Of a DNA stretch of 15,256 bases, positions 10,893-15,228 are shown piece by piece. Numbering within the stretch: the first letter of the stretch is position 1; the number at the start of each line of letters is the position of its first letter. Made by a program: the position numbers and the translations under genes. Source of the DNA: a virus. Taxonomy: Duplodnaviria; Heunggongvirae; Uroviricota; Caudoviricetes. The notes beneath the pieces are model-generated. The model made no database searches. It was not told the DNA's origin and saw only the letters and a program-made list of their open reading frames with translations. The DNA is taken from IMG/VR virus record IMGVR_UViG_2526164646_000014. The stretch is one strand, 5' to 3'.

Positions 10893-10969
10893 GGCCCTTT
10901 AGCTCAGTTGGTCAGAGCGAGCGACTCATAATCGCCAGGTCGCTGGTTCAAGTCCAGCAAGGGCCACCA
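10893..10969 (+). tRNA. tRNA-Ile2 (anticodon CAU, lysidine type; formally could be Met)
   Basis: Hand-folded cloverleaf: acceptor GGCCCTT/AAGGGCC, anticodon loop CTCATAA (CAT at 10927..10929), T-loop TTCAAGT, encoded CCA; close to recalled E. coli ileX. Confidence 0.8.
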
Positions 10970-10970
10970 A

Positions 10971-11047
10971 CCACCACTAGCTCATCCGGATAGAGCATCA
11001 ACCTTCTAAGTTGACGGTGCGAGGTTCGAGTCCTCGGTGGTGGGCCA
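10971..11047 (+). tRNA. tRNA-Arg (anticodon UCU)
   Basis: Acceptor CCACCAC/GTGGTGG (unusual C1:G72), anticodon loop CTTCTAA (TCT at 11005..11007), T-arm CGAGG-TTCGAGT-CCTCG, encoded CCA. Confidence 0.75.
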
Positions 11048-11049
11048 GC

Positions 11050-11125
11050 GCCGACTTAGCTCAGCAGGCAGAGCAACTGACTTGTAATCAGTAGGTCACC
11101 AGTTCGATTCCGGTAGTCGGCACCA
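11050..11125 (+). tRNA. tRNA-Thr (anticodon UGU)
   Basis: Acceptor GCCGACT/AGTCGGC, anticodon loop CTTGTAA (TGT at 11083..11085), encoded CCA; T-stem has one A.C mismatch; resembles recalled E. coli thrT. Confidence 0.7.
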
Positions 11126-11128
11126 TAT

Positions 11129-11203
11129 GCGGGCATCGTATAATGGCTATTACCTCAGCCTTCCAAGCTGATGATGCGGGTTCGATTCCCGCTGCCCGCT
11201 CCA
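11129..11203 (+). tRNA. tRNA-Gly (anticodon UCC)
   Basis: Acceptor GCGGGCA/TGCCCGC, anticodon loop CTTCCAA (TCC at 11162..11164), T-arm GCGGG-TTCGATT-CCCGC, encoded CCA; matches recalled E. coli glyT. Confidence 0.85.
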
Positions 11204-12274
11204 TGACCTTTCTTAAAGTACTCCAACCTACTGAATCCTAAGGGATACGGCTTTAAGCCTCCTTGCAGAGTTACTTACTGTAACCCACTGTGTAACCCTC
11301 TCAGGGCATACAGACATATGATTCAGCTATCCAGTAGTCACAAACTTCCAGCAGTCTACTATCTCTACCAGCGTAACGGCGTCTACTACTTCCGTCTTAG
11401 GGTCAGACAATCAAACAATGATAGAATGACCTCAATATCATTACGGACCAAGGATAGACGCACCGCTATGGCTTACTCAAGGCACATAAAGGCAGCACTC
11501 AAGGCAATACACGCAGACAGACCCAACGCTACCTACGAGGAAATGAGGGAACACCTTAAGGACATCGCTGAGTGTGAACTGTCTATGGGCCGTTCAGATC
11601 TCTTTGAGCCTGACATGAGGGATATCTACCGGGACCAATACGGAGAACTTGGTGAGAGCCTTACCGATGCTCTGGCTAGTGAGCCGCTAAGCATTGACCA
11701 GCATCGTTACATCAATGAGGCCCTGAAGGTGCTAAAAGCCTGTATGAGGCGTATCGAAGCGGGAGACAGTCAGCCTCTGATAGATTACGTCGATCTTTTT
11801 AATGATATTGATAGGCAAGATAACCAAGCAGACTCTGTGTCCCTATCTGTTAATGCTCCAGAAGTAAAACCAGAAGTTACGCCTAGCATTACCATAGCGA
11901 GCCTCTTTGAGCAATACGAAGCGGAGAACTATCAGAACTGGAAGCCTGCAACCTTAAGGGAAAACAAGGCGTCACACGCTGCGTTAATCGAAATATTCGA
12001 CCATCTGGGTCTCAATGCAGACGCTAACAGGGCTGACATGCTTAGGGTCCGTGATGTGCTCCAGCAGTTACCTAGGAACCGTAAGCAGCGCTTCAAGGAT
12101 GTCCCACTTGCTGACCTGTTGAGCCGTGAAGATAAGACAGATTGTCTGGATGTCGTTACCATCAACAACAAGTATCTTATTAAGATGGCTGCTGTCTTTA
12201 GGTGGGCTGTGCGCAATGACTTGATTAAAAAGAACATGACTGAGGGTCTGGAGCTTAAAGTCCCTCTGAAGTGG

Positions 12275-13114
12275 TCAACAAAAACTGGCCACCGAGTTAG
12301 AGTTTTTCCAGTATCGATTTTCCGATTCGTTTGGGGGTAACCCACCGTTATATTCGTGCGGTCTTAGTGCGCTGTAATATCCAACGATATAGTCCGTTAT
12401 GGCGTGAGCTGCCTCGCTGAAGCTTACGTAACCCACCACCGGCATCCATTCGTTCTTCAGACTCCTGAAGAAGCGTTCCATTGGGCTGTTATCCCAGCAG
12501 TTTCCGCGCCGGCTCATACTCTGTCTGATCTGGTATCGCCACAATAACTGCCGGAACTGCCTGCTCGTATAATGACTGCCCTGATCGCTGTGGAACATCA
12601 CCCCGCCGGGCTTACCACGGGTTTCCCATGCCATTTCCAGCGCTTTCATGGTGAGCCTGCTGTCCGGCGAGAACGACATGGCCCAGCCCACTGGTTTTCT
12701 TGCGAACAGGTCGAGAACAACGGCGAGGTACGCCCAGCGCTTACCCGTCCAGATATAGGTCACATCACCGCACCACACCTGATTTGGCTCGGTCACGGCG
12801 AACTGCCTTTCAAGGTAGTTAGGGATAGCAACATGTTCATGACCACCACGTTTATACCGGTGAGTCGGCTGCTGACAGCTGACCAGCCCCAGCTCTTTCA
12901 TGAGCCTGCCAGCAAGCCAGCGTCCCATCTGGTAGCCTCTCCGGGTTGCCATTGTGGCGATGCTTCTTGCTCCGGCCGAACCGTGGCTGATGCCATGTAG
13001 CTCAAGTACCTGACTGCGTAATACAGCCCGTCTGCCGTCTGGTTTTTCAGGACGGTTTTTCCAGTATCTGTAGCTGCTGCGATGAACCCCGAACACATGG
13101 CAGAGTGTGACCAC
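12275..13114 (-). CDS. IS911 OrfB (DDE catalytic domain)
   Basis: 279-aa ORF with IS3-family DDE-region sequence (WCGDVTYI..., HSDQGSHY). Confidence 0.8.
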
Positions 13115-13140
13115 AGGATAATGCGCTCTGAGTTTCCCGA

Positions 13141-13441
13141 TTATCGAGAACTGTTCAGGGAGTCTGACATCAAGAGCGCGGTAGCCTTTTTTAATATTTC
13201 ATTCTCCATTTCAATGCGTTGTAGCTTTTCCTGAGCTCACGGATTTCAATTTGTTCCGGGGTAATGGGGGAGGCTTTTGGTGTTTTGCCCTGACGCTCAT
13301 CACGCAGTTGTTTGACCCATCTTGTCATTGTGGAAAGGCCAACATCCATAGCTTTGGCGGCATCTGCCACCGTGTATTTCTGGTCAACAACCAGTTGAGC
13401 GGATTCGCGTTTAAACTCTGCGCTAAAATTTCTTTTTTCAT
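13141..13441 (-). pseudogene. IS911 orfA with frame disruptions in two A-runs
   Basis: The HTH frame ([32 protein letters not shown]...) is out of frame with the ATG at 13441..13439 and with the leucine-zipper frame ([28 protein letters not shown], ending 13141); the changes sit in runs at about 13433..13438 and 13221..13224. Confidence 0.6.
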
Positions 13442-14259: not shown

Positions 14260-14282
14260 TAATACGACTCACTATAGGGAGA
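14260..14282 (+). promoter_or_regulatory. Perfect T7 RNA polymerase class III promoter consensus (TAATACGACTCACTATAGGGAGA), +1 G at 14277
   Basis: Exact 23/23 match to the T7 -17..+6 consensus read directly from the sequence; points rightward toward the repeat region and the Rha-like gene. Confidence 0.85.
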
Positions 14283-14480
14283 AGGGACACAAAAAGTTTT
14301 CTCTTCTAGGACAACTAACCGTAACTTATCGCATCCTTTCAGGGGCGGGATGACCAATTACAGACACCAAGCGTTCTACTTAAAGTGAATGCTTCCTGTG
14401 TGCTCTGGGTCAGTCGATAAGTGAATAGCAATAAGACACAATCATCTTAATTATGGTCTCTAGTCCCTACAGGGGCTTAA

Positions 14481-14565
14481 CTTAAAGTTAACTTAAAGAC
14501 ACAATTAAAGATTAACTTATAGTATTACTTAAAGTTAACTTAAAGACACAATTAGAGATTAACTT
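14481..14565. repeat. AT-rich tandem duplication (38-bp unit cttaaagttaacttaaagacacaatta[a/g]agattaactt, period 47 bp) inside a ~140-bp AT-rich tract rich in TTAAAG
   Basis: Copies at 14481..14518 and 14528..14565 differ at one position; additional TTAAAG / ATTAAAGA motifs extend to about 14615. Confidence 0.8.
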
Positions 14566-14666
14566 TAAGTATTAAATAAAAGATTTAATTAAAGACCAAT
14601 TAAAGATTAACTCTAAGGGAATACCTTAAGGGGTGATGATATTTATAATAATCAATCACCAAACCT

Positions 14667-14743
14667 ATAGGTCTTCTCTAGGGTCTCTCTATAGGTCTTC
14701 TCTATGGTCTCTCTATAGGTCTCTCTAGGGTCTCCTCTAGGCA
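14667..14743 (+). repeat. Iteron array B: about 6 direct copies of a 12-bp unit (A/G)GGTCT(C/T)TCTCTA
   Basis: aggtcttctcta gggtctctctat aggtcttctctat ggtctctctat aggtctctct agggtctcctctagg, read directly. Confidence 0.8.
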
Positions 14744-14760
14744 TTACCCCCAGAAGCTAA

Positions 14761-14800
14761 CTCTATGGCCCTCTATGGTCCTCTATGGTCCTCTATGGCC
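14761..14800 (+). repeat. Iteron array C: 4 perfect tandem 10-bp units CTCTATGG(C/T)C
   Basis: ctctatggcc ctctatggtc ctctatggtc ctctatggcc. Confidence 0.85.
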
Positions 14801-14847
14801 CTGTACGTCATTCTTTAGGATGCCCTGTAGTTTCGTATAGCCTGATG

Positions 14848-14892
14848 CCTAGAGAGACCCTAGAGAGACCCTAGAGTGGCTCCTAGAGAGAC
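14848..14892 (-). repeat. Iteron array D: 4 copies of CCTAGAGAGAC (reverse complement of the array B unit)
   Basis: cctagagagac cctagagagac cctagagtggct cctagagagac; reverse complement GTCTCTCTAGG matches array B units. Confidence 0.8.
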
Positions 14893-15055
14893 CCTCCCAG
14901 TAGCTCCGCACAGCTACATCGTCATCATCATAGTATTCAATCTCAAAGTCATTCTGTTTGCATCCTGTTGTCCTGCTGGTCTCCCTTCGCTTGGGGACTT
15001 TGAGTAGGTCAGTGGGGGTGCGACTTCAGGGTGCAAACAAAAAGGAAATCAAGCG

Positions 15056-15228
15056 ATGTCTCAACAACCACAACAACCACAACAACCACAACAACCACAA
15101 CAAGAAATCAGCATCATTAACCTCGACCAGCTTGTGTCCATGACCTCAGTTGAAATTGCTGAGCTGACAGGCAAGGAGCACCGAAATGTCCTTCGTGATA
15201 TTCGTAAGATGCTCGAAGAACTTAACGC
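15056..15228 (+). pseudogene. Phage regulatory protein Rha-like (N-terminal 57 codons), truncated by IS1
   Basis: SD agga at 15043..15046; MSQQPQQPQQPQQPQQEISIINLDQLVSMTSVEIAELTGKEHRNVLRDIRKMLEELNA then the IS1 end; the SVEIAELTGKEHRNVLRDIRK stretch resembles the Rha family N-terminus (recalled). Confidence 0.6.
15062..15103 (+). repeat. In-frame 9-bp tandem repeat (CAACAACCA x4.7) encoding (QQP)n
   Basis: caacaacca repeated, read directly in the Rha-like ORF. Confidence 0.9.

Follow-up and report, generated by a model that had tools for sequence, protein, structure and literature searches.

A truncated, IS-damaged T7-promoter island in a lambdoid prophage, from a family that may parasitise T7-group helper phages

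The window analysed here is the whole stretch of 15,256 nucleotides, and its block at ~11195-15228 is, on sequence comparison, a truncated, IS-damaged copy of a small (4-7 kb) integrative island family of Enterobacterales. The best overall explanation is an IS-damaged T7-promoter island whose family parasitises T7-group helper phages, an account that we give slightly better than an even chance. The family itself most likely lives as a satellite on virulent T7-group phages and at the same time harms its helper. Both this kind of island and the idea of T7-helper parasitism have been known since 2006, and no experimental test of the idea was found in the searchable literature. The features of the window are as follows.

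7913-8587: Q-like antiterminator gene, upstream of the island block.
8975-10131: further IS3-family element, between the Q-like gene and the tRNAs, together with an ORF6N gene.
10893-11203, plus strand: four tRNA genes with anticodons CAT, TCT, TGT and TCC (ARAGORN, Rfam).
10893..11125, plus strand: the prophage-borne tRNAs among them, CAT (Ile2/Met), Arg-TCT and Thr-TGT; context, outside the island.
11129..11203, plus strand: hybrid tRNA-Gly(TCC)-like gene forming attL; 5' part prophage DNA, last ~9 nt (CCCGCTCCA) from the island.
11204..11317, plus strand: island left arm (TGACCTTTCTTAAAGTACTCCAACCTACTGAATCCTAAGGGATACGGC...), kept across genera; inverted motifs mirror it at the right arm of intact islands.
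11318..12269, plus strand: tyrosine integrase, N-terminal part.
12270..13516, minus strand: IS911-like (IS3 family) insertion that splits the integrase; target duplication of 3 bp (CTC).
13517..14172, plus strand: tyrosine integrase, C-terminal catalytic part (Pfam Phage_integrase).
14260-14282, plus strand: exact 23-nt T7 class III promoter TAATACGACTCACTATAGGGAGA, predicted +1 at G14277.
14283..14470, plus strand: conserved spacer that T7 RNA polymerase would transcribe, with a hairpin GCATCC-N11-GGATG inside.
14471..14640, plus strand: AT-rich, TTAAAG-rich tract, homologous to the AT-rich segment of the primary origin that T7-like phages have between genes 1 and 1.1.
14665..14895, unstranded: repeat arrays in both orientations, namely CTATAGGTCTCT x6 (14665-14739), CTCTATGGCC x4 (14761-14802) and inverted CCTAGAGAGAC x4 (14848-14895).
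14952..15042, plus strand: long conserved leader hairpin, directly followed by the ribosome-binding site for the island's first gene.
15056..15228, plus strand: N-terminal fragment (57 aa) of a Rha/Ant-like DNA-binding protein (Pfam Phage_pRha, E=2e-9), cut by IS1 at 15229.
15229..15256, unstranded: end of an IS1 copy that has removed everything further along in the island, namely the Rha C-terminus, the cargo genes and attR.

All features that the first-pass annotation had listed for the block were recovered in place or nearby. Its exact T7 promoter was confirmed on the plus strand at 23 of 23 positions, its AT-rich tract and iteron arrays in both orientations were supported by GC and repeat analysis, and its Rha-like gene was upheld by the Pfam match. 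The two IS elements said to have degraded the unit do so, the IS911-like one by splitting the integrase gene and IS1 by cutting the Rha-like ORF. What had to be given up was the counting of four rare-codon tRNAs as part of the unit, since these belong to the cargo of the prophage, the integration site being just the 3' end of the fourth.

The boundary of the island is given by a sister prophage without it (L053), in which the three tRNAs of 10893..11125 likewise come after Q and the CAT tRNA carries a tRNA-Ile annotation. When the window was aligned with the island-free prophage, divergence began past GGGTTCGATTCCCGCTGCC. This sister, with its clean junction, shows that the island is a clean insertion into the prophage; and because prophage DNA extends through three tRNA genes and most of the fourth, the unit starts at the att core at ~11195. 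The hybrid tRNA-Gly(TCC)-like gene, aligned with glyU attL sites, resembles the glyU 3' end and is a secondary integration site, a look-alike of glyU inside a lambdoid prophage. As to direct repeats, attL is there in the window and attR has gone through IS1. The block lies 3' of Q and of the late leader terminator, in the same orientation as late transcription.

The noncoding core of the island was detected in 218 of 5426 complete E. coli genomes, and relatives occur in at least 15 further enterobacterial genera. Their usual site is the chromosomal glyU tRNA-Gly gene, outside any prophage. Intact relatives measure 4.1-7.3 kb, with direct repeats of the tRNA 3' end, 16-27 bp long, on either side; the analysis covered more than 40 such copies in which both att repeats survive. 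The attR repeat of the tRNA-Gly 3' end, proposed earlier as a feature to look for, is thus present in intact relatives as a direct repeat and has been lost to IS1 in the window copy. The same distribution bears on the view that the block is simply a moron of the lambdoid late region, cargo placed after Q and before the lysis genes, with a functionless match to the T7 promoter. Its place after Q and the late leader terminator, reading in the direction of late transcription, and its commonness in genomes would fit such a moron, an outcome that the first-pass annotation, on condition that T7-family relatives were lacking, had named as speaking against its proposal. However, the same element, with its own att sites, is usually found at chromosomal glyU, and the sister prophage lacks it with a clean junction. 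Together with the promoter conservation described below, these observations leave the moron explanation hardly credible.

Removal of 12270-13516 restores the integrase frame, the IS911-like element being its sole interruption, and the joined product (join(11318..12269, 13517..14172)) is 535 aa long with Phage_integrase and DUF6538 domains. This integrase is 94% identical to that of the glyU island L001 and shares 99% identity with a cluster that bears the name Shigella flexneri integrase; integrases more than 80% identical occur in ~10 genera. Locus L010 carries the integrase without the IS insertion, and the identical IS1 junction is found in both L009 and L010. In the window and its relatives the integrase gene lies 5' of the promoters on the same strand; since it is upstream of the phage promoters, no induction is expected from the integrated state. 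No excisionase was recognised in the islands. The window copy itself has lost the integrity of its integrase, all genes past the Rha N-terminus and attR, and is capable at most of transcription and replication in place.

The promoter TAATACGACTCACTATAGGGAGA had no match at ≤3 mismatches in 200 shuffles. In its extended form it best matches T7 phiOR, and the promoter together with the first transcribed bases fits phiOR better than phi1.1A/B. Each E. coli island carries one or two exact 23/23 T7 promoters; sister copies (L008, L009, L001, L003 and L005) have two in tandem, 118-121 bp apart, and the window has only one. T7-group promoters were present in every relative, shortly 3' of the integrase gene. 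Position and strand are conserved while the specificity region varies by genus: Klebsiella islands bear an exact K11 promoter, whose corresponding K11 genome site is annotated 'promoter', and other variants were found in Citrobacter, Proteus, Kluyvera, Shimwellia, Buttiauxella, Lonsdalea and Edaphovirga islands, all of them on the integrase strand and ~0.3-1.5 kb or less 3' of the integrase gene. Island promoters also match annotated promoters of phages ICP3, Dev2 and SH4, and promoter cassettes have been exchanged between islands that are otherwise alike. A cognate RNA polymerase gene was absent from all islands examined. A 23/23 match that is kept across islands and swapped for phage-specific promoters in other genera is, judged on this pattern of conservation, not a chance occurrence, which counts against the functionless match that a moron would imply.

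The promoter of the window reads into an AT-rich region, as in a T7-type primary origin. The spacer between them (14283..14470) hardly varies among E. coli islands and can still be recognised in Klebsiella, as seen in the alignment and in the L015 sequence. Beyond it, GC content falls to 15-22% over 14490-14610, and the tract is composed of a 47-bp unit in 2.9 copies. Searched with blastn, the tract matched IME15, Ebrios and other phages at ~6.2 kb; in local alignment it scored z=16 against the IME15 origin and z=6.5 against the T7 primary origin. On these similarities the AT-rich tract is identified as a homologue of the primary replication origin of T7-like phages. The T7 primary origin (phi1.1A/phi1.1B, nt ~5840-6000) likewise has promoter(s) followed by an AT-rich, TTAAAG-rich segment, with primase sites nearby. 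Unlike in T7, where promoter and tract are adjacent, the putative origin of the island has a conserved spacer of ~190 bp between them, and its tract is duplicated (47-bp unit x2.9).

The repeat arrays that follow differ in copy number among islands, and their units hold T7 primase recognition pentamers (TGGTC/GGGTC). Compared with shuffles, these pentamers are 3- to 8-fold enriched (plus strand, 9 vs 2.8±1.6 expected; minus strand, 12 vs 1.5±1.1), an enrichment that is not independent evidence because the pentamers come from the repeated units. Read in reverse complement, the SRL repeats from the left end of T7 bear a weak resemblance to the arrays (z=6.4). The leader hairpin at 14952..15042 was folded by RNAalifold from 11 islands of 8 genera, with 30 pairs, 5 of them showing compensatory changes; Rfam held no family for it.

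The Rha-like ORF of the window contains an expanded (CAACAACCA)n repeat at 15062-15103, and its full-length homologue in L001 is 234 aa. Full-size relatives encode a Rha- or KilA-N-type protein, a small protein, a DUF6971 protein and, downstream of the DUF6971 gene, a capsid-like protein whose structure model shows an HK97 fold with moderate confidence (pLDDT 70) and which has no sequence similarity to T7 gp10. Minimal islands encode only a KilA-N protein with a 105-aa membrane protein or a 157-aa protein; neither the minimal 4.2-kb islands nor the window have the capsid-like gene. No replication, terminase or polymerase gene was found in Pfam/PHROG scans of island proteins.

This gene content decides against one of the two origins first suggested for the block, a remnant of an integrative T7-like phage: neither the window nor any of the >40 att-complete relatives of 4.1-7.3 kb has RNA or DNA polymerase, primase/helicase or terminase genes. 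Such an origin, in which IS activity stripped a temperate T7-like phage of its genes for RNA polymerase, replication and structure, would account for the exact T7 promoter, the T7-type origin and the integrase beside a tRNA gene, and the window copy is indeed cut by IS1. Yet dozens of att-complete relatives of 4-7 kb hold no T7-like gene at all, and their sole structural-type gene shows no sequence similarity to gp10, so that we regard this origin as very improbable. The other suggestion, a satellite of T7-like phages with a helper-activated origin, is supported as a hypothesis by the conserved promoters, the genus-specific specificity region and the origin-homologous tract.

In many relatives a DUF4145 gene overlaps the integrase 3' end and matches the PD-T7-4 model (E=1e-102). 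This RAZR (PD-T7-4) homologue is cargo of the island family, present in 28 fetched island loci and absent from the window copy. RAZR has been experimentally shown to be an RNase triggered by the T7/T3 portal; it is an abortive-infection system against T7 and T3 with its own promoter and protects alone from a plasmid (PMC13017515). Vassallo et al. observed that PD-T7-4 'often overlaps an integrase gene' (PMC9519451). T7 promoters, an origin and the island are unmentioned in both papers (PMC9519451; PMC13017515).

These data raise the possibility that the island serves defence, its T7-group promoters acting as an infection sensor and its origin as an amplifier. Toxic or interfering products would be overexpressed during infection, among them Rha/KilA-N, membrane proteins and a decoy capsid protein, the last of which would poison T7 head assembly; RAZR would kill the infected cell, and the phage would never package the island, which would spread by other means. 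RAZR is proven abortive infection against T7/T3, and as it defends alone from a plasmid, defence by itself could explain retention of the island. The minimal islands, with just KilA-N plus the 105-aa membrane or 157-aa protein, also suit a defence role. However, RAZR is encoded 5' of the phage promoters and has its own promoter, and therefore the promoter-origin module is unneeded for it. A captured phage origin and a capsid-fold gene are moreover the classic toolkit of a satellite.

The evidence on mobility divides between the two accounts. The predicted attP junction was absent from IMG/VR and JGI metagenome contigs, and contigs were searched for excised, circular or concatemeric forms of the island, of which none turned up: wherever the core was seen, in 22 metagenome contigs and 3 contigs from viral collections, the island was integrated, and island-length contigs are chromosomal bubbles rather than circles. 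Neither the T7 terminal repeat nor its right-end repeats have a similar sequence in the islands, whose noncoding region also lacks the class II pause signal ATCTGTT; the weak likeness of the arrays to the SRL repeats is the sole signal of this type, and hence no packaging signal was recognised. The lack of a recognised excisionase, the place of the integrase gene 5' of the phage promoters and the missing capsid-like gene of the minimal islands likewise speak against a satellite. The finding of neither a packaging signal nor a packaged or excised form agrees with defence. On the other hand, the presence of integrases with more than 80% identity in many genera, alongside intact att sites, points to frequent horizontal transfer, for which a vehicle is required. 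Taken together, we consider a purely defensive island unlikely, though a serious rival to a satellite of T7-group phages.

The satellite account was compared with known systems. Chen and Schneider (2006, NAR) reportedly described islands with clusters of 2-3 T7-like promoters and no RNA polymerase gene. These are said to have an upstream tyrosine integrase, terminal direct repeats of 17-24 bp and a size of 4-13 kb, with few downstream phage-related genes; their reported hosts are enteropathogens, and a dependence on T7-like helper phages was reportedly proposed. The block of the window apparently belongs to this family of 'tandem T7-like promoter' islands. It shares with them the T7-group promoter without a polymerase gene and the same-strand upstream integrase; the terminal repeats and the small size are seen in its intact relatives. 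The window copy has a single promoter instead of a tandem pair and lacks attR.

PICMIs (phage-inducible chromosomal minimalist islands) have a primase and AlpA of their own, whereas the islands lack any replication gene, carry a phage-type origin with phage-polymerase promoters instead, and occur in another host family. In their very small size, short list of genes and lack of any gene for capsid remodelling, the 4.2-kb variants resemble the PICMIs of Vibrionaceae, which are satellites of virulent phages and are reported to have their DNA packaged in unremodelled capsids (PMC10803314). For the capsid-fold gene, close comparisons are the cf-PICIs (EcCI2 major head protein, 9gyi) and, beside them, SaPI capsid-size redirection (SaPIbov5 Ccm, 7rwz). 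Unlike cf-PICIs, which also encode portal, protease, connectors and small terminase, full-size islands have only one HK97-fold gene with DUF6971 upstream, in a region that the window has lost. No P4-like satellite genes (primase/helicase alpha, Sid, Psu, Delta) were found in Pfam/PHROG scans of island proteins. As in helper-embedded PICIs (PMC10111431), the island of the window sits in the late region of a lambdoid prophage, co-oriented with late transcription; unlike in those, its embedding looks accidental, via a secondary att site in a prophage tRNA gene. As the island promoters are T7-type, the lambdoid prophage is not the expected helper.

Because a perfect T7 promoter adjoins a T7-style origin, activation probably occurs only on infection by a T7-like phage. 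In the satellite account, the island would stay silent until such a phage injects its DNA and produces its own RNA polymerase, which would fire the promoter at 14260-14282. As at the T7 primary origin, the transcript could prime T7 DNA polymerase in the adjacent AT-rich tract, and the clustered primase sites could start the opposite strand, so that the island would be amplified by the phage replisome. The same transcript would also express the downstream genes (Rha/KilA-N type, small protein, DUF6971 and capsid-like), of which the capsid-like protein could build or resize capsids, while RAZR in many relatives would sense the T7 portal.

The homology of the tract to phage origins, the presence of a capsid-fold gene and the connection with RAZR are possibly unreported before. 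That these islands are true Autographiviridae satellites, with helper-specific swappable promoters, a captured helper origin in place of a replication gene, in full-size members an HK97-fold protein of their own for building or resizing capsids, and a portal-binding RAZR, is a reading to which we give a little less than an even chance. If it is true, the window would be a fossil copy showing that such satellites can enter prophage tRNA genes.

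The block is a broken copy of a small integrative island that belongs to a known family. Its features, together with the adjoining tRNA genes, are as follows.

10893-11203: four tRNA genes (ARAGORN and Rfam)
12270-13516: IS911-like element of the IS3 family, lying inside the integrase gene with a 3-bp CTC duplication
14260-14282, plus strand: T7 class III promoter consensus of 23 nt, exact, single occurrence
From 15056: ORF for the N-terminus only of a Rha-family protein, ended by the IS1 at 15229

The ORF starting at 11318 and the ORF ending at 14172 are two halves of one tyrosine integrase. 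When 12270-13516 was excised in silico, a frame of 535 aa was regained, and the rejoined protein showed 94% identity to an intact E. coli integrase and 99% identity to a protein cluster bearing the Shigella flexneri name. As a chance control for the T7 promoter, 200 shuffles gave 0 matches at three or fewer mismatches. Transcription from this promoter is predicted to begin at the G at 14277. The GC content drops to 15-22% at 14490-14610, 3' of the promoter, and tandem and inverted repeat arrays follow the AT-rich tract. These arrays were considered as arm sites of the integrase and rejected, because they lie at least 1.7 kb away from the att sites. The first-pass annotation had thus listed the tRNAs, integrase, exact T7 promoter, AT-rich tract, repeats and Rha-like ORF accurately, and it had rightly stated that two IS elements degrade the unit: the IS911-like element splits the integrase, and the IS1 cuts the Rha-like ORF at 15229. 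A 9-bp repeat, CAACAACCA, present in 4.7 copies at 15062-15103, encodes a run rich in Gln and Pro at the N-terminal end of the Rha-like protein and is missing from its homologues in the relative loci L001 and L002.

Megablast against 5426 complete E. coli genomes gave no full-length match to the window. Many partial matches were obtained from the same genomes, in which a tRNA-Gly is followed by the same integrase. The E. coli element is located at the tRNA-Gly gene glyU, between actS and the ETT2/yqeG region, and the tRNA 3' terminus is directly repeated at its two borders (CCCTTCGCCCGCTCCA and longer). Island sizes were 4149 bp (L005), 4195 bp (L004) and 4276 bp (L003), and about 7.1 kb (L002) and 7.3 kb (L001) with IS included. 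The gene order runs from the integrase through a DUF4145 gene in some islands, about 1 kb of noncoding DNA, a gene for a Rha- or KilA-N-type protein and a few small or unknown genes to the right-end repeat attR. No replication, polymerase or terminase gene was found in any of the islands examined. The earlier proposal of a T7-like prophage remnant is therefore wrong, as the relatives are bounded by att repeats and lack these genes.

The family is common: the noncoding core was present in 218 of the 5426 E. coli genomes (about 4%), and the K. pneumoniae type strain also carries an island of the T7-promoter family. Among the E. coli strains whose island is intact are EC17CM13, 21AR0133 and 2018-05-2CC. 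An integrase scan of one genome per bacterial species yielded 16 loci. The genera represented include Klebsiella, Citrobacter, Proteus, Kluyvera, Shimwellia, Buttiauxella, Enterobacter, Lonsdalea, Edaphovirga and Pectobacterium. In a separate comparison, integrases kept more than 80% identity between genera. At two relative loci (L048, 6112; L023, 6851) the left arm abuts the right end of another element rather than a tRNA; hence different islands build tandem arrays at one att site.

The copy in the window occupies a different place. 5' of the block lies a decayed lambdoid prophage with a DnaC-like gene, an IS1 copy, DUF1367, YbcO, a Q-like antiterminator (7913-8587), a second IS3-family element and an ORF6N gene. 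In a related prophage free of the island (L053), the same Q is followed by tRNA-Ile, tRNA-Arg, tRNA-Thr, a fourth tRNA-like gene and a holin-lysozyme cassette. Alignment showed that the two are identical through GGGTTCGATTCCCGCTGCC within the fourth tRNA and divergent beyond. Therefore, the tRNAs are prophage cargo and the block was inserted into the 3' end of the fourth tRNA; the initial view of the tRNAs as a component of the unit does not hold, given the shared Q-tRNA order and the point of divergence. The left arm of the window is that of the glyU islands, and the window tRNA is unlike glyU apart from the stretches GGGTTCGATTCCC and GCCCGCTCCA, so this is a secondary integration site. The fourth tRNA-like gene of L053 (1929-1999) has the anticodon TAC and an acceptor 3' strand one base short, while the same gene in the window (11129-11203) has the anticodon TCC and an acceptor stem mended by the island-borne end. 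A foldable tRNA may have been regained through island insertion.

Three contigs of the viral collection have the same prophage-embedded layout; one of them lacks the IS911 insertion, and all three have the same IS1 truncation. The shared truncation marks the copy in the window as a degraded remnant particular to one lineage, probably Shigella. Four IS copies lie within 15 kb (IS1 at 6301-7069, IS3-family at 8975-10131, IS911-like at 12270-13516 and IS1 at 15229-15256), a density typical of Shigella. At the island end of the sister contigs, IS1 joins sequence matching window 9226-10174, a junction that indicates IS1-mediated rearrangement. Among Rfam families, the tRNAs alone scored above threshold. 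A sub-threshold isrK-like match at 10730-10803 (21.5 bits, E=0.16) ends in a strong terminator hairpin directly 5' of the tRNAs; lying outside the island, it probably represents the leader and terminator that belong to the late promoter of the lambdoid prophage.

Phage promoters are a conserved hallmark of the islands. Among the 14 loci keeping at least about 1 kb 3' of the integrase gene, 12 have T7-group promoters 0.3-1.5 kb 3' of that gene, invariably on the same strand. Of the E. coli islands examined, all carry either a single exact T7 promoter or a pair of them 118-121 bp apart, except for the variant L002, where four promoters of the CACTATAGGG type show a T3-like CC at -11/-10. The specificity region from -17 to -6 varies by genus. 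In Klebsiella islands, AATTAGGGCACACTATAGGGAGA is a 100% match to a phage K11 site annotated 'promoter', and these islands additionally hold the T7 promoter in exact form, plus a third type common to other Klebsiella podophages. Promoters of the Proteus and Citrobacter islands match annotated promoters of the T7-like phages ICP3, Dev2 and SH4; for the Proteus island, the matched phages are not those of Proteus itself. Different combinations of promoter cassettes on one backbone were seen in 22 metagenome contigs. For several promoters, with the first transcribed bases included, the best phage match was a promoter near the phage right end, which in the case of T7 is phiOR (39209-39242). L003 (9620-9674), L004 (9642-9664) and L005 (9516-9538) hold a third and divergent promoter-like site, CAATACGACTTACTAATAGGAGA, with three copies of AATCAATACG in front of it; this site is missing from the window and may serve a further phage polymerase.

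Alignment of five islands revealed a near-invariant block at window positions 14223-14670, in which a 190-bp spacer links the promoter to the AT-rich tract; the block is flanked by repeat arrays whose copy number differs among islands. By blastn against phage genomes, 14580-14630 matched DNA lying between genes 1 and 1.1 in IME15, Ebrios and related T7-like phages, and inspection of the phage sequences placed the T7 primary origin in this interval. At that origin, promoters phi1.1A and phi1.1B read into an AT-rich region; the transcript primes T7 DNA polymerase, and the gene 4 primase starts the other strand. Compared against shuffles, the AT-rich tract resembled the IME15 origin (z=16), the T7 primary origin (z=6.5), the T7 phiOL secondary-origin region (z=5.6) and the T7 left-end (SRL) repeats (z=5.3), and showed no significant likeness to the T7 terminal repeat (z=0.9) or right-end repeats (z=-0.1). 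The T7 primase pentamers GGGTC, TGGTC and GTGTC occurred 9 times on the plus strand of the window's noncoding region (versus 2.8±1.6) and 12 times on the minus strand (versus 1.5±1.1). As the pentamers sit within repeated units, this excess is no more than suggestive.

Intact relatives carry cargo genes. The DUF4145 gene, which in many of them overlaps the 3' end of the integrase gene, matched the PADLOC model PD-T7-4 (E=1e-102). PD-T7-4 was discovered via selection for T7 resistance and 'often overlaps an integrase gene' (PMC9519451); it has been renamed RAZR, an RNase switched on when it assembles around the portal ring of T7 or T3 (PMC13017515). The island context goes unmentioned in both papers. 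RAZR homologues were found in 28 fetched island loci (e.g. L002, 15662-16321; L015, 6397-7029), invariably between the integrase gene and the phage promoters. For the other island proteins, PADLOC gave nothing beyond a weak PD-T4-2_B match on the KilA-N protein.

In full-size islands, the final gene codes for a protein of 326-402 aa, and homologues of it exist in E. coli, Klebsiella, Pectobacterium, Yersinia, Serratia, Lonsdalea and Erwinia. For the 373-aa form, no match came from Pfam, from PDB sequence searches or from profile searches, and hhalign profile comparison with T7 gp10A was negative; the fold came to light through structure prediction alone. Its AlphaFold2 model (pLDDT 69.9, pTM 0.67) returned 89 PDB and 136 viral Foldseek matches at E<=1e-3, and this predicted structure matches nearly only HK97-fold capsid proteins and encapsulins. 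The gene is present in 18 loci and missing from the minimal 4.2-kb islands and the window.

An imperfect hairpin of about 90 nt lies directly 5' of the first-gene ribosome-binding site (window 14952-15042), with counterparts in L002 (17166-), L015 (8017-), L018 (3296-), L026 (9957-) and L028 (9536-). It is kept in at least eight genera, even across a differing downstream gene (Rha or KilA-N), with compensatory changes in 5 of 30 predicted pairs and no Rfam family match. The hairpin might be an RNase III-type processing site as in T7 mRNAs, or a translational control element.

By sequence, the islands thus carry an integrase with att sites, phage-polymerase promoters and an origin-like tract, and the relatives a capsid-fold gene and an anti-T7 defence gene, with no genes for autonomous replication or packaging. 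In a satellite life cycle, a T7-group phage would bring the RNA polymerase that switches the island on; its replisome would replicate the island from the captured origin; the phage-polymerase transcript would allow expression of the Rha/KilA-N protein and the structural-type genes; and the island would then be packaged and transferred. The genus-linked promoter type, the shuffled promoter cassettes and the integrase identity above 80% between genera agree with activation by a specific helper and with frequent transfer. The chief competing reading is a defence island that has the phage polymerase as its trigger and is not transferred. Several results disfavour packaging. The attP-junction pattern GATACTTCGATTCCCTTCGCCCGCTCCATGAC gave 0 matches in IMG/VR and 0 in JGI metagenome contigs; a core-pattern search of IMG/VR for an excised or virion-derived form returned just three prophage-embedded copies, from isolate genomes; and no circular or free island was seen among the metagenome contigs, 22 of 22 being integrated. 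Metagenome contigs of 4.16-4.18 kb were considered as circles and rejected, since they start in tRNA-Gly and have no terminal overlap. Furthermore, the search for T7 packaging signals found neither an ATCTGTT pause site nor any likeness to the terminal repeat or the right-end repeats, no excisionase was recognised in the islands, and the integrase lies 5' of the phage promoters. Since known satellites carry defence genes, the satellite and defence readings are compatible. A satellite with a helper-activated origin, an idea dating from 2006 and now 20 years old, is reasonable and unproven.

In 2006, Chen and Schneider reportedly described 12 promoter clusters in nine enteropathogens, on islands of 4-13 kb that have tandem promoters in twos or threes, a tyrosine integrase upstream and terminal repeats of 17-24 bp and that lack a polymerase gene, and are said to have suggested that they are satellites of T7-like helper phages. 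The features found here match this description. The Shigella copy may be among the 2006 originals, since a review cites that paper in relation to a Shigella island. Our search of the literature on satellites, T7 and promoters located nothing else relevant, and the 2006 report appears to have been overlooked: of the four citing works found, none belongs to the satellite field. Possible additions to the 2006 account are the origin homology, the HK97-fold gene, the recurrent RAZR cargo and the jump into a prophage tRNA gene.

The damaged remnant in the window contributes little alone; the chief value lies in rendering an old hypothesis concrete and testable. T7 is the best-studied virulent coliphage, and we know of no demonstrated satellite of it. 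If true, the hypothesis would give a new satellite design, in which a promoter for the helper RNA polymerase is the switch and a copy of the helper origin is the sole replication function. The island family is also the natural home of the RAZR defence protein, and through it perfect T7 and K11 promoters are present in wild chromosomes, which bears on T7-like phage therapy and on T7-polymerase expression systems in natural isolates.
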